Positions 1-3,780 of a stretch of 4,039 nt of DNA are shown here, piece by piece. The position numbers and the translations under genes were made by a program. The stretch lies in the IMG/VR virus record IMGVR_UViG_2778261494_000010; one strand, written 5' to 3'. The DNA comes from a virus (taxonomy: Duplodnaviria > Heunggongvirae > Uroviricota > Caudoviricetes). The notes under the pieces were generated by a model that saw only the letters and a program-made list of their open reading frames with translations, ran no database searches and was not told the origin of the DNA. Numbering within the stretch: the first letter of the stretch is position 1; the number at the start of each line of letters is the position of its first letter.

Positions 1-24
1 GATATTGCCATTCCCCCTCCTCAT
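1..24 (-). CDS. 5' end of the next downstream gene (partial, runs off the window); function unknown
   Basis: ATG at 24..22 overlaps the connector stop (23..21) in an ATGA arrangement, the same coupling seen at the other junctions in this operon. Reads MRGGNGNI... to the window edge. Only 8 codons visible and the upstream SD is weak. Confidence 0.3.
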
Positions 25-347
25 AACACCGTCGGACAACGCAAATCGTAAATCAGCACGGAAACAGAAAACGGCAGTTCCCCCTGCACGAGGTCTTCCC
101 GCTCAGCAAGATCCGGATTCCGGTACAGCATCCCGGTCAGTCGCATGGCAGCCCCCTTCATCCGGGTTAATGCCTCACCAGGGATCAGCTCACCGTCCTC
201 ACTAATCACCTTATCCCGGCTGCCCTGGATGTAGGCCAGCAGCACGGCGGTAGCCTGACGAACCTTGTCCATCAGCATCTCATCATCCGCGTCATGGTCA
301 ACACGCAGATGTGCCTTGATTTCTTCCAGTGTCAGTAATGCTGTCAC
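21..347 (-). CDS. Phage head-tail connector / adaptor protein, gp6-like, 108 aa
   Basis: N-terminus MTALLTLEEIKAHLRVDHDADDEMLMDKV... and C-terminal LTRMKGAAMRLTGMLYRNPD fit the pattern I remember for gp6-like connectors (recognition by eye). Start is GTG at 347..345, preceded by a strong SD AGGAGG (359..354 on the minus strand) with a 6-nt spacer. The GTG overlaps the upstream gene's TGA (GTGA). Confidence 0.8.
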   Translation of the reverse strand: MTALLTLEEIKAHLRVDHDADDEMLMDKVRQATAVLLAYIQGSRDKVISEDGELIPGEALTRMKGAAMRLTGMLYRNPDLAEREDLVQGELPFSVSVLIYDLRCPTVL

Positions 348-1081
348 TTTCCACCTCCTGCATCCCGCCCACGTTTTGCAGCCAGAGTCCAGCCTGATGA
401 ATGAGCTTCTCCGGGCTTATCACCGGTCATACTGTTGCAGTGCCACAACGAGCCCCCCCACGTCACCGTATCGCCGGGGTGGTAAGTTTCGCCGATTCTG
501 AACACACCACGGTAGAGCATCACCGGCAGGGAAAATGTTTTTTCCGTACGCTGGCCACTGCTCTGCCGGACCACCACAGAGAACGACCGTTCACCCGTCA
601 TGCTGACGTCAATATCCGCCACCCCGTCAACCAGGCATTCCCATCCCCGCATCCCGTACGTTTTTTCATACGCCCGCCAGAGTCCACCCTGGTGTGTGGC
701 ATACGAGCCCCGGGGAAAGGATTTTTGATCGTCAATGGCGGGGAGTATTTCCAGTGCCGTGGCATCACGCCCGTCCTGCGGAGCCGGCAGGGCACTCACC
801 GCATCATTCACCGCCTTCTGCAGAACATCCGGATCGTAGTCACGACCGTCGCGCGGAACAGGAATATGGCTCACTGCCTCTTTCACCATCTGCTCAAGCA
901 TCGGACGCACATCATCACCCGTCACGCACTTCTGTAATACCACAGACTGAGAAGCCAGTTTTTCTTCAAACGTTTGTGCCTGCGCGGCTATTTTCTCCTC
1001 AAATGTACGCTGTAAATCCGCCAGCACCATGGCGAATTCTTCGCCCAGTGCACGAATAATGGACAGTTCCCGTTCCGTCAT
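344..1081 (-). CDS. Hypothetical phage head-module protein, 245 aa: coiled-coil N-terminus with internal repeats and a beta-rich C-terminal domain; possibly scaffold or decoration protein
   Basis: ATG at 1081..1079 overlaps the portal stop (ATGA), with a GGGGGA SD upstream. The N-terminal 50 aa are heptad-like and charged, with a tandem 11-aa repeat (QRTFEEKIAAQ / AQTFEEKLASQ). Two P-x-P-x-D-G-R-D motifs lie 25 aa apart (PVPRDGRD, PAPQDGRD). No obvious serine-protease motif and no capsid-like C-terminus. Function is not recognised. Confidence 0.7.
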   Translation of the reverse strand: MTERELSIIRALGEEFAMVLADLQRTFEEKIAAQAQTFEEKLASQSVVLQKCVTGDDVRPMLEQMVKEAVSHIPVPRDGRDYDPDVLQKAVNDAVSALPAPQDGRDATALEILPAIDDQKSFPRGSYATHQGGLWRAYEKTYGMRGWECLVDGVADIDVSMTGERSFSVVVRQSSGQRTEKTFSLPVMLYRGVFRIGETYHPGDTVTWGGSLWHCNSMTGDKPGEAHSSGWTLAAKRGRDAGGGK

Positions 1082-2442
1082 TTTCGCAGTATCCCCCTGA
1101 ACATCGCTTTCACCGCATCATGCTCTGTTTCACTGATTGCCTTATTACCGTCAGATGCGCCATCAGGCAGTTGTGCTGAGACTGTTTTCCCGGACGACGC
1201 GAACGGATCCTCACGGGCATCACGACGGGACAGCGCCTCCAGACTGTAGTTCTGCTGCTGAAGATACAGTGCATCACCGCCGGCCAGGGGCGGCAGGTTC
1301 TCACGTTTACGGGCCTCATTGGGCGTCAGCAGCGTATTTTTCACCGACTCACCCAGCGTTTTCATGCGCCGTTCGCTGTCCATTCTCAGCAGCGTGGTGA
1401 CGTCAAACTCCGTGCTCTCGTTTTCCCCCGTTTCCAGCGCCTCATCCAGTAACAGCTCAATGGACTCAATCAGCGTCTGCAGACACTGGGAATAATACTG
1501 CTGCTCCAGCGCCTCCACGTTATCACTGGAGGGAGGTTGTCCCACACCAATCTTGTAGGCCGGGACACGGAACACCGAACAGACAATTTCAGCGGTCATT
1601 TTCAGTTGTTCCACCGTCTGCGCATCCACCGGTGAAAACGTCGTGGGGTTATATTTCGCCCCGTTGCTCAGAATCGCCGTTTTCCCCGCATTTTCGCCGG
1701 TATACCCGCTGTCCCAGTTGCTCTTCAGTTTTTTCGCATTTTCTTCCGTTATACTGCCGGGGATCTCAATCACCCCGGACGGCCTGCCGCCATTTCTGAA
1801 AAAAGACGTTGAATTTGCCTGAATATGATACCCCTGCGTGGCAGCCAGCCCGGCAGCATACACCGGCGGCAGCCCCACAAGCGGATGAAAAAAACAGTTA
1901 AACCGGTCGTGGATCACTTCCCGGGCAGGCACCGTCACCGCCTCCGTGATCCCGCAGTTCCGGTCCGGCGTGATGCGGTAGAACACCTCGCCGTCATCCG
2001 CCACCAGAGGTTCAACCCGGCTCCAGTCCAGAATACGCAGTTCTTTGATCTGCCCACGGGAGTTACGGATTTTCAGCACCACCGTATTGCCGTGACGCAG
2101 TTTGGCGTTCAGCCACAGTTCAAAAAACTGGATACGATTCTGCTGTGCATTGGGACGACGACAGAGACGGGCAATATCCCCCTGCCGTTTTTCACGGCGG
2201 ATCCCCTGTGTATCGGTCTGCATCAGGCGCAGCCGCATTTTGGCGATATCCTGGGATATCAGCGAAATGCAAGAAAACACCGCATGAAAGGAGAGGACAC
2301 TTTCCGGATCGGCTTTCACTCCCTGCTGCCAGGCACCGGCAAAAGGCTCAGCCACCGCCTGAAACAGGCTGGTCCAGCCCACCTCTTTTACATCACGTCC
2401 TGATTTCTGGTTTTTTCGGGGTCGCCGCAAAAGGTTCCACAT
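1078..2442 (-). CDS. Phage portal protein, HK97 family, 454 aa
   Basis: Long ORF with two segments that fit remembered HK97-family portal patterns: an N-proximal SVLSFHAVFSCISLISQDIAKMRLRL and a central PVDAQTVEQLKMTAEIVCSVFRVPAYKIGV. ATG at 2442..2440 has a GGAG SD about 8 nt upstream. Pattern recognition by eye, not a search result. Confidence 0.9.
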   Translation of the reverse strand: MWNLLRRPRKNQKSGRDVKEVGWTSLFQAVAEPFAGAWQQGVKADPESVLSFHAVFSCISLISQDIAKMRLRLMQTDTQGIRREKRQGDIARLCRRPNAQQNRIQFFELWLNAKLRHGNTVVLKIRNSRGQIKELRILDWSRVEPLVADDGEVFYRITPDRNCGITEAVTVPAREVIHDRFNCFFHPLVGLPPVYAAGLAATQGYHIQANSTSFFRNGGRPSGVIEIPGSITEENAKKLKSNWDSGYTGENAGKTAILSNGAKYNPTTFSPVDAQTVEQLKMTAEIVCSVFRVPAYKIGVGQPPSSDNVEALEQQYYSQCLQTLIESIELLLDEALETGENESTEFDVTTLLRMDSERRMKTLGESVKNTLLTPNEARKRENLPPLAGGDALYLQQQNYSLEALSRRDAREDPFASSGKTVSAQLPDGASDGNKAISETEHDAVKAMFRGILRK

Positions 2443-2609: not shown

Positions 2610-2653
2610 CAGTTACTGCGGGAAGCTAGCGCCTCCCGCCCTCCTCATCAGAC

Positions 2654-3563
2654 TCAGCCGCCGGACGCAGTTCCGTAGTTCACACCGGTGATCACAGCCA
2701 CCGCCGCGGTACGGCGACGACGCCAGTTGATCCAGCGCTCCGCACGGATGGCCACGCTGCCGGTCTGGAACATGGAGACCAGCTCCACCGGTGACGGTGT
2801 GCTGCTGTCGCTGGTCGGTTCAGACTGCATCTCCAGTGACGCTTCACGGGACATATCCACCGCCACACCACCGTCATCCGCCAGATAAATATCCGGCGCA
2901 TTCACCAGTACCAGCTGGTCACCCACATACTGGGAGACAATCACCGGCAGCCCCTGGAAGGTCCCGCCCAGCAGGGTCATGTCCGGATATTCCTTCTGCC
3001 CCAGCGCATTTTTACGCATGGACAGCGCCAGGGCATTCGTGCTGGACATCAGCCAGACCGCACCGGTGGGCTGCAGATTTGCCGTCACAAACTGGCCAAA
3101 CGCGGCCTCGGCATCCGCATCCGGATTACCGCTTGACGCCGTGCCCTTCACATCATGGGTGATGGACGCAGGGGAGACATCTGCCACCGCCGCTTTTTTC
3201 GGGTCCACAAAGTCTGTATCCAGACGCGCCACCACCGCTTCCGCCAGCGCATATTCCCGGTAGTTTTCCTCTGTAGGTTATCAACACATCCTGCGCCTCT
3301 AAAATTACGGGACGCTTTTCCGGTAACGGACCATCCCCTTCACATAACCCGGCAGCAACATCCATGAAAAACTGCTTCGCCTGCTTTTTCGCCTCAGCTT
3401 CGTAAAACTCCAGCGTGGCACCTTCAGTACGGTCAAGACTAATCGCCACATCTGGCAACAACAGTGACGGATACCCACCAATTTCCAGTGCCACAGTAAC
3501 AGTAATCTTATCCGGGTAATTATTTATCCCTTTAACAACCAGTTCGTATTTTTTCTTCATCAC
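2654..3563 (-). pseudogene. HK97-fold major-capsid-like gene, frame-disrupted: an N-terminal ~100-aa frame (3563..~3264) joined by a +1 frame change to a C-terminal ~207-aa frame (3277..2654)
   Basis: The downstream frame is open from 3277 and ends ...VAIRAERWINWRRRRTAAVAVITGVNYG. Its C-terminal ~110 aa align by eye with the HK97 gp5 C-terminus (GLPVI..., ...VAVDMSRE..., E-R...TA.V.I.G). The upstream frame starts at GTG 3563 / ATG 3560, 1 nt after the holin stop, with GGGGAGAG as SD, and reads plausibly to about ITYRGK before degenerating into a Gly/Cys-rich tail typical of out-of-frame GC-rich coding. The two frames overlap at 3153..3277 and the switch maps to a GGAAAAC run (A4 at 3264..3267). 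Joined length of about 305 aa would suit a delta-domain-less HK97-fold capsid protein. Sequencing error, genuine pseudogene or recoding cannot be told apart here. Confidence 0.5.
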
Positions 3564-3564
3564 T

Positions 3565-3780
3565 TTACTCTCCCCGCGCCGCCTTACGCCGGTCTTCTTT
3601 AATCTTGAAATACAGGTTCGTCAGATATGTCAGCAGCCCAAACAGCAGACTCCCCAGCACGCCTATCGCCACCCACTGGGACGGAGAGACTTTGTCCAGC
3701 AGCTGCAGTAACCAGTATCCCGTCCCCACCGCTGACGTGGTGTATGACACACCCGTTGTGATTTTTTCCATCTGGTACAT
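3565..3780 (-). CDS. Class II holin (pinholin), phage 21 S / DLP12 EssD family, 71 aa
   Basis: Translation [71 protein letters not shown] is near-identical, from memory, to S21/EssD-type holins. It has two TMDs (a weakly hydrophobic Gly/Ala/Ser-rich TMD1 and a hydrophobic TMD2) and a charged C-tail. Start is ATG at 3780..3778 with GGGAGACGGGG upstream. The 106-aa ORF in the track (to 3885) is an artefactual N-terminal extension. Met1 and Met4 match the S21 dual-start (antiholin/holin) arrangement. Confidence 0.85.

Follow-up and report, generated by a model that had tools for sequence, protein, structure and literature searches.

A phage head-gene block from Escherichia coli O157:H7 very probably belongs to a defective lambdoid prophage at ydfJ that has lost 6,991 bp

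The window analysed here, the whole 4,039-nt stretch of IMG/VR record IMGVR_UViG_2778261494_000010, carries every one of its genes on the minus strand; its plus-strand ORFs matched no Pfam family, and an Rfam search of the window matched no family. Read in the direction of transcription, it begins with the 3' end of a NanS-p-type SASA/DUF6645 esterase gene (3930..4037, 35 codons plus stop), which runs off the window and is recognized from its translation and from the annotated esterase of loci L001 and L164. Between this gene and the holin gene lies a spacer with a terminator-like hairpin followed by a T-run (3819..3847, minus strand; consensus scan, 12-pair stem). Repeat and promoter/terminator scans of the window yielded a single hairpin, upstream of the holin, and otherwise nothing above chance. 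The holin itself (3565..3780) is of class II, the phage-21 type (PF04971, E=3.5e-32), and has a dual start, with ATG 3780 yielding 71 aa and ATG 3771 yielding 68 aa; its annotated length is 207 nt in L001 and 216 nt in L164. A 106-aa holin ORF starting at GTG 3885 was rejected as an over-extension.

Next comes ydfR' (3252..3560; YdfR/DUF1327, PF07041, E=1.8e-45), which comprises the first ~103 of 114 codons of a gene that is full-length in locus L076 and is labelled by PGAP 'incomplete, missing C-terminus'. It abuts a junction at 3251..3252, on the other side of which lies the 3' piece of a Peptidase_S78-capsid fusion gene (2654..3250), a pseudogene fragment labelled by PGAP 'incomplete, missing N-terminus'. 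A conserved small ORF of 73 aa follows (2388..2609; phrog_829, E=1.4e-38), then an intact HK97-family portal gene of 454 aa (1078..2442; PF04860, E=1.4e-80) with a G5 tract near its end (1093..1097, C5 on the plus strand), a fibre-like gene of 245 aa (344..1081), and a gp6-like head-tail connector, adaptor Ad1, of 108 aa with a GTG start (21..347; PF05135, E=9.8e-8; phrog_40, E=3.1e-30). The first 11 nt of a head-closure gene (1..11, annotated in L001) run off the window.

An earlier reading of this DNA, made from the sequence alone, had reported a holin, a capsid-like gene, a portal, a scaffold-like gene and a connector. The ORF list bears out these ORFs, their order and their common minus strand, and a profile search of the window gives Pfam support to the holin, ydfR', capsid-family fragment, portal and connector. 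That reading also stated that terminase and protease are missing from the window, and neither the ORF list nor Pfam shows either one there. Its gene list passed over the truncated ydfR that follows the holin gene and precedes the capsid piece (3560..3252), and its 'capsid-fold gene' is of the capsid family (E=2e-5) only as the last 198 of 645 codons, plus stop, of the protease-capsid fusion, lacking the native start and out of frame with ydfR'; the Pfam match accordingly covers profile positions 158-279 of 280 only. The 73-aa ORF, which had been called doubtful, is probably a real gene by sequence comparison: it is 55-56 aa long in distant relatives, and its position and conserved N-terminal ~37 aa recur in 12 distant loci.

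The portal profile match is full-length and above the curated cutoff, at 355.4 bits against a TIGR01537 cutoff of 112 and with PF04860 aligned over positions 2-321 of 321, and it places the protein in the HK97 family. The 245-aa product was characterized by a representatives search, an AF2 model and Foldseek, and consists of a long N-terminal helix, a single 54-aa PxPxDGxD repeat and a domain rich in beta structure, in which the last ~45 aa are predicted to adopt a CBM5/12 fold. The model reaches a pLDDT of 85.5 with a 28-sequence alignment and 46 from a single sequence, and its tip superimposes on the chitin-binding domains of chitinase B and ChiC with an rmsd of 1.1-1.8 A over ~45 residues. 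In sequence searches PF02839 scores 20.4 bits on the window protein, below the gathering score of 26.2, though 32.3 bits on one homologue, and a PDB sequence search returned a marginal match (E=0.39). Across relatives the gene is under purifying selection, with a pN/pS of 0.146 computed from an anchored slice that keeps the 405- and 407-aa forms aligned; the portal control for the G5 set was left out because an indel had put it out of alignment. The product is thus a fibre-like protein with a CBM5/12-fold tip, as predicted from the model, and not the scaffold-like protein first proposed. Searches of Pfam, PHROG and NCBIfam found no scaffold family match for it, and its model of a long helix plus beta-rich domain led us to reject the scaffold reading; NCBIfam has no family for either the 245-aa or the 73-aa ORF. 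Scaffold genes usually lie upstream of the capsid gene, and the coiled-coil linker within the protease-MCP fusion is more likely to act as the scaffold.

The tight coupling of all junctions had been taken as a sign of a selected arrangement. It does exist at two places, where the portal stop TGA overlaps the ATG of the fibre-like gene (ATGA) and where the fibre-like gene overlaps the connector (GTGA), and the phage family as a whole has these two overlaps natively; the overlap of ydfR' with the capsid piece, by contrast, is a by-product of deletion. The portal C-terminus, ...KAMFRGILRK*, is homologous to the ...KAMIRGFLTK* of distant relatives, and all 17 loci read at the portal end show a ...KAMFRGILRK-TGA-type ending together with the overlap, 15 of them being distant relatives without the G-run. 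In phage 2851, the addition of one G turns the G5 tract into G6, and portal and following ORF become a single product of 859 aa, with the fused frame reading ...FRGDTEKM.... The two-gene state is, on this sequence comparison, ancestral and the G6 fusion derived. We therefore reject the PGAP call of a 'frameshifted' portal pseudogene, since the G5 frame is the ancestral frame, with the same ending and overlap in relatives.

Both states are common. Viral contigs divide into 31 with G5 and 39 with G6, the portal tree requires no fewer than eight switches, phages recovered as virions include examples of each state, and the fibre domain is under equally strong purifying selection in either. It is conceivable, though we think it rather unlikely, that the portal and fibre-like gene are a translationally coupled pair of deep conservation and that the G5/G6 tract toggles E. 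coli phages between two proteins and one 700-960-aa fusion. If such a switch were functional, it would tune the attachment of a carbohydrate-binding fibre at the portal vertex, and if it were real, 'frameshifted/defective portal' calls would be wrong in hundreds of O157 prophages. That the split is the original state would also bear on which O157 prophages remain able to form particles and to spread genes for Shiga toxin or effectors. Programmed frameshifting at the tract, in which a -1 P-site slip on GGG before a rare AUA codon would join the frames, found no support; the tract is absent from distant relatives, and frameshifting is not claimed.

The placement of a capsid gene before the portal had been called non-canonical. 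In this phage family it is standard: the order terS, terL, protease/MCP, 73-aa ORF, portal, fibre ORF, connector is found in phage 2851, Lys8385Vzw and phi330, all three with intact terminase and tails. Lys8385Vzw was induced with mitomycin, purified from single plaques, viewed by TEM and sequenced on MiSeq (PMC7946995), and phi330 is a plaque-forming siphophage. The Sanger record of phi330 differs from phage 2851 by several small indels, and it was therefore used only for gene order and lifestyle, not for base-level frame calls. Beyond these phages, the order recurs in ~20 distant viral contigs and 30 prophage or genome loci in many genera of Gamma- and Betaproteobacteria, the prophages ranging from Enterobacterales to Pseudomonas and Delftia. 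The sequence-only reading had itself named conservation of this order beside intact terminase and tails in plaque-forming phages as evidence against its proposals, and plaque-purified Lys8385Vzw presents just that. Capsid, 73-aa ORF, portal, repeat-protein ORF and connector thus stand in native order with no rearrangement. The head module is widespread and capsid before portal is its usual layout, and no rearrangement flag is therefore warranted.

What is abnormal in the window is the junction at 3251..3252. Alignment to L076, an undeleted copy of the same prophage, places positions 266-788 of the reverse-complemented window on L076 316-838 (100%) and positions 788-4039 on L076 7830-11081 (99.6%), so that a single 6,991-bp deletion with exact breakpoints joins ydfR codon ~104 to codon 447 of the 645-codon protease-capsid fusion gene; the two ends share 1 nt of microhomology. 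The end of ydfR was lost, together with the endolysin gene, an antirepressor-like gene, the spanin gene, a DUF3950 gene, an HNH gene, terS, terL, and the prohead protease domain and first 446 codons of the fusion gene, which survives only from codon 447 on, without a start. Past the junction, ydfR' continues for 31 out-of-frame codons to a stop at 3153; an exact look-up of the resulting chimeric 136-aa ORF returned no record.

Of 5,426 complete genomes, 27 carry the junction, each of them contiguously with everything downstream, and each half on its own turns up in about 2,900. In strain F690 and in L076 the undeleted form lies at the same site; its protein accessions are identical, it is likewise flanked by ydfI, ydfJ' and three NleG-like genes, and its gene set is complete. 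Terminase is present in this undeleted sister but neither in the window nor in the 27 genomes with the junction, which makes the element a deletion derivative and not an intact member of its group. The two forms differ at 12-15 of 3,252 bases.

The element itself is a lambdoid prophage at ydfJ in E. coli O157:H7, to which the window is 99.97% identical (1 mismatch in 3,774 bases) and which matches in strains RM6067W, TW14359, EC4115 and others. The Qin prophage of K-12, also lambdoid and damaged in morphogenesis genes, likewise sits at ydfJ. In the near-identical complete-genome copy L001, where the modules beyond the 4-kb window were read, the prophage is ~40 kb long and has its own replication and Q-type late-control genes. 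As the earlier reading had proposed checking, the flanks are informative: replication and regulation genes lie upstream of the block, and directly downstream of it is a tail module that is almost complete (tape measure, L, K, I, split J, fibres), although the J/TipJ tail-tip gene is a pseudogene split in two pieces. An aligned share of 81% of the window is 93-95% identical to phages Lys8385Vzw, 2851 and WGPS6, and its head module is syntenic gene for gene with those of Lys8385Vzw and 2851. All told, we are highly confident that the window is the late-operon part of a lambdoid prophage that is defective, related to Pankowvirus (the phage 2851 group), inserted at ydfJ in O157:H7 and marked by one 6,991-bp deletion. 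The alternative of an internally rearranged prophage remnant was right as to the remnant; one simple internal deletion takes the place of rearrangement.

Three other explanations fare far worse. The first is that the deleted arrangement is under selection, for instance with portal, fibre, tail or holin parts benefiting the host or co-resident phages. Intact downstream genes, the pN/pS of 0.146 of the fibre gene across relatives and the complementation of O157 prophages by one another would fit, but that pN/pS signal comes from the whole phage family and not from the deleted lineage, which is so close to its undeleted sister that it is too young to bear a selection signal of its own; we regard this as quite improbable. 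Slightly less probable still is an assembly artefact, a short-read contig mis-joined across repeats common to several prophages. The whole window occurs in one piece in no complete genome, since the 265 bases upstream of the holin (4039..3775) match a different prophage, beside ssrA, and not the ydfJ prophage, and an exact 523-bp stretch is common to the two. A mis-join could, however, touch only those 265 bases, the ydfR'/capsid junction at 3252 and all that follows being contiguous in the 27 complete genomes. Because no complete genome holds the whole window, its true flanks are inferred from near-identical relatives and not seen. Finally, the proposal of a capsid module of the phage-satellite kind (a capsid-forming PICI, for example) with its own portal and connector and a borrowed terminase and tails, suggested by the lack of terminase and protease and by the packaging of defective O157 prophages with co-resident help (PMC2669165), is hardly credible. 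Pfam and PHROG searches of the window matched no further families, such as capsid-size redirection genes, and this is a ~40-kb element, no small island, that has lambdoid replication and regulation genes upstream and tails in cis, a dead 3' capsid fragment without a start, an undeleted parent at the same chromosomal site, and a junction so rare and restricted to one lineage.

On the preferred reading, a prophage with one internal deletion, an illegitimate event with 1 nt of microhomology fused ydfR to the middle of the protease-capsid gene and left the downstream genes unaffected. From the small ORF through portal, fibre-like gene and connector to head closure and tails, these keep their native order and translational coupling. 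Judging from gene content, the element alone would be incapable of building heads, packaging DNA or lysing the cell. The Q-dependent late promoter would continue to drive its remaining late genes, which could serve at most as spare parts or recombination partners for the many related prophages of the same cell. The deletion is routine, and the element is one of many defective O157:H7 prophages, already present and annotated in complete genomes.

Among the closest known systems is the undeleted ydfJ prophage of F690 (NZ_AP026080) and CP015020, which shares the insertion site and protein accessions and is 99.5-99.6% identical from capsid to connector and 100% identical over 523 bases on the holin-ydfR side, but keeps the 6,991 bp with endolysin, spanin, HNH, terS, terL and the full protease-MCP gene. 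Phage 2851 (Pankowvirus pv2851, NC_049943) and the O157 Stx2c/Stx1a siphophages 1717 and WGPS4/6/8 have 92-95% nt identity from mid-capsid to connector. All of these run from terS and terL through the protease-MCP fusion, portal and connector to head closure and tails; phage 2851 is complete where the window's element lacks 6,991 bp, and has four 54-aa repeats to the window's one. The Stx1 siphophage Lys8385Vzw (MT225100; 95% nt) matches the window in its 73-aa ORF, 454-aa portal, 245-aa ORF, 108-aa connector and G5 tract; unlike the window, it has intact terS, terL and a 645-aa protease-MCP gene directly upstream.

Phage satellites, capsid-forming PICIs among them, are small islands that encode an integrase and replication functions of their own and have intact capsid genes but lack tails. 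They likewise show a head-gene block without the full phage gene set, but the window's element differs from them in its broken capsid gene and in its tails in cis. Another parallel is the Sakai pool of Sp6, Sp9, Sp10 and Sp12, which are also lambdoid with lesions in morphogenesis genes and have a 'slightly different' head-region organisation (PMC2669165). All Sakai lambdoid prophages but Sp4 have an intact terminase, and defective O157 prophages can be packaged with the help of co-resident prophages and complement each other (PMC2669165). The deletion described here belongs to another O157 sublineage than Sakai, that of TW14359, EC4115 and RM6067W.

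The window corresponds to part of a lambdoid prophage of E. coli O157:H7 (strains RM6067W, TW14359, EC4115 and others), from which it differs by one mismatch in 3,774 bases. The complete genomes of these strains place the block in a prophage of about 40 kb inserted in ydfJ, downstream of repressor, replication and Q-type genes, tRNAs and an esterase gene. Tail genes follow directly, and then three NleG-like effector genes. The same prophage, identical in its protein accessions and ydfJ site, occurs in other O157:H7 strains, where the late region is complete: holin, YdfR (114 aa), lysozyme, an antirepressor-like gene, a 48-aa ORF, spanin, DUF3950, HNH, terS, terL, a 645-aa Peptidase_S78-capsid fusion, a 73-aa ORF, a 454-aa portal, a 245-aa ORF and the connector.

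All of the credible genes of the window are on the minus strand; its plus-strand ORFs matched no family, and neither did the window itself in an Rfam search. The 3' end of a NanS-p-type esterase gene (35 codons, 4037..3930) and a hairpin with a T-run found by scanning (3847..3819) precede a phage-21-type holin (PF04971, E=3.5e-32) that ends at 3565. Its two starts (3780 and 3771) are in frame and three codons apart (MYQMEK...), giving products of 71 and 68 aa, which we take to be the phage-21 holin/antiholin arrangement. Next come ydfR/DUF1327, truncated (3560..3252), the 3'-terminal 198 codons of a capsid-family gene (3250..2654), the 73-aa ORF (2609..2388), the portal gene, of the HK97 family (2442..1078; PF04860, E=1.4e-80; TIGR01537, 355 bits where the cutoff is 112), the 245-aa ORF (1081..344), a gp6-like connector gene (347..21) and, at the window end, the first 11 nt of a head-closure gene. 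The sequence-only reading had these genes and their order right, while overlooking the truncated ydfR, taking the capsid fragment for a gene and labelling the 245-aa ORF scaffold-like.

Comparison with the undeleted ydfJ prophage (L076) accounts for the broken genes. Positions 266-788 of the window's reverse complement correspond to L076 316-838 (100% identity) and positions 788-4039 to L076 7830-11081 (99.6%), so exactly 6,991 bp are missing, with one base shared at the join. Past the join the truncated ydfR runs out of frame for 31 codons, and the capsid remnant, its start lost, lies in a different frame; PGAP labels the two genes "missing C-terminus" and "missing N-terminus", respectively. 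Searched across 5,426 complete genomes, a 241-base probe covering the join was found in just 27, with either half alone present in about 2,900. The deletion is a young, lineage-restricted lesion and not a conserved design.

One junction within the window is itself in doubt. Positions 4039..3252 match, at 100% identity, another prophage, a degraded one adjoining ssrA; this prophage and the one in ydfJ share an exact 523-bp stretch (3774..3252), and a genome search found the whole window in one piece in no complete genome. Either a short-read assembly error or a genuine recombination event may therefore have linked the first 265 bases, in the direction of the genes, to the remainder. In both cases the junction between truncated ydfR and capsid, and everything downstream, is unaffected.

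What remains of the element includes intact holin, portal, fibre-like and connector genes and most tail genes; terminase, protease, most of the capsid gene, endolysin and spanin are gone. Judging from this gene content, the element would be unable by itself to build heads, package DNA or finish lysis, though the late promoter would still drive its surviving late genes. The J/TipJ tail-tip gene downstream is in two pseudogene pieces, a split common to deleted and undeleted strains (L001, a near-identical complete-genome copy of the deleted prophage, 32909-36987; L165, an undeleted-strain locus, 20811-24888); the tail defect thus predates the 7-kb deletion. The block had been read as either a satellite-like capsid module or a prophage remnant. 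The former finds a grain of truth in the report that O157 prophages of this kind can be packaged with the help of relatives in the same cell (PMC2669165), but nothing suggests that the arrangement was selected for helper use, and a rare, lineage-restricted deletion in a prophage of about 40 kb with a near-complete tail module does not support it. The element is a prophage remnant, produced by a single deletion relative to the undeleted prophage at the same site.

The 73-aa ORF (phrog_829), whose 3' end runs 55 nt into the portal gene, had been called doubtful; distant loci have in the same position a 55-56-aa protein with the conserved pattern MAKIRYLQRTHDS..GD.K.V.D.CARVLVLLGKAEY, and the ORF is probably a genuine small gene.

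An AlphaFold model of the 245-aa ORF, built with a 28-sequence alignment (pLDDT 85.5), predicts an N-terminal helix of 47 residues, a pair of short helices formed by the one PxPxDGxD repeat, and a beta-rich domain spanning residues 111-240 (pLDDT >90). The C-terminal ~45 residues of this domain superpose on CBM5/12 chitin-binding domains with an rmsd of 1.1-1.8 A. Its viral structural neighbours are collagen-repeat and tail-fibre-like proteins. Pfam yielded only a sub-threshold CBM_5_12 match, and an NCBIfam search yielded none. The scaffold-like label is discarded in view of the modelled long helix, beta-rich domain and CBM5/12-fold tip; a likelier place for the scaffold function is the coiled-coil linker within the protease-capsid fusion. 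In our reading the ORF encodes a fibre-like accessory protein that would be associated with the portal vertex. The family of this protein comprises 5,528 clusters at 50% identity, mostly stand-alone proteins of 210-500 aa. It is very large and uncurated, has no Pfam or NCBIfam model, and always lies between portal and gp6-like connector; its members combine a long helix, 54-aa repeats in varying number (ORF length 245 to 569 aa), a beta-rich domain and the CBM5/12-fold tip.

PGAP calls the window portal "frameshifted" because reference portals, such as the 859-aa protein of phage 2851, extend into the next ORF. The sole frame difference is a tract of five Gs (1093..1097, minus strand) against six in phage 2851; three 54-aa repeats have been lost separately and in frame. 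The state of this tract, which lies at 14155-14160 in the compared locus L002, decides between two genes with an ATGA overlap and one fusion of 700-960 aa. In 15 distant relatives the site reads AGAGGATTT, without a G-run, and the portal ends ...KAM(I/L)RG(F/L)L(T)K, its TGA overlapping the ATG of the next ORF. The window portal shares the ATGA overlap and ends ...KAMFRGILRK, and the frameshift reading was rejected on this match. Since the relatives share the ending and overlap without a G-run, the two-gene arrangement is ancestral and the fusion derived. Both states are common, with G5 in 31 and G6 in 39 of the E. coli-type viral contigs; the portal tree requires at least 8 changes and contains one large clade that is nearly all G5. 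The downstream ORF is open in 23 of 27 G5 loci, and purifying selection acts equally on its terminal domain in the G5 state (pN/pS 0.146) and the G6 state (0.173). Overall the finding is an ordinary one, already represented in annotated genomes, and the sole mildly new point is that the "frameshifted portal" is the ancestral two-gene state of a widespread pair of portal and fibre genes.

The gene order had been described as non-canonical, with the proviso that its presence beside terminase and tail genes in genuine phages would tell against this. In phage 2851 (Pankowvirus) the order is terS, terL, protease-capsid fusion, portal, adaptor, head closure and tails. Lys8385Vzw, a phage induced with mitomycin, purified from single plaques on strain WG5, viewed by TEM and MiSeq-sequenced (PMC7946995), has exactly the layout and ORF sizes of the window, differing in its intact terS, terL and 645-aa fusion upstream. 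The order is also that of phi330, a plaque-forming, OmpC-dependent Pankowvirus. Compared with phage 2851, the Sanger record of phi330 (PV189401; L074 3875-6620) carries several indels of 1-2 nt, which interrupt portal, fibre and other late ORFs and probably reflect errors in the sequence, not biology. Some 20 more distant viral contigs, with portals at 57-68% protein identity, keep terL, protease/MCP, small ORF, portal, fibre ORF, connector and head closure, and the same order occurs in 30 prophage loci from Atlantibacter, Kosakonia, Enterobacter, Citrobacter, Pantoea, Morganella, Proteus, Pseudomonas, Delftia, Acidovorax, Variovorax, Marinobacter and others. Asadulghani et al. noted a "slightly different" head-region organisation in the Sakai prophages Sp6, Sp9, Sp10 and Sp12 (PMC2669165). 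With terminase and tails accompanying it in real phages and prophage loci, the order is a native layout, and the proviso tells against the non-canonical description.
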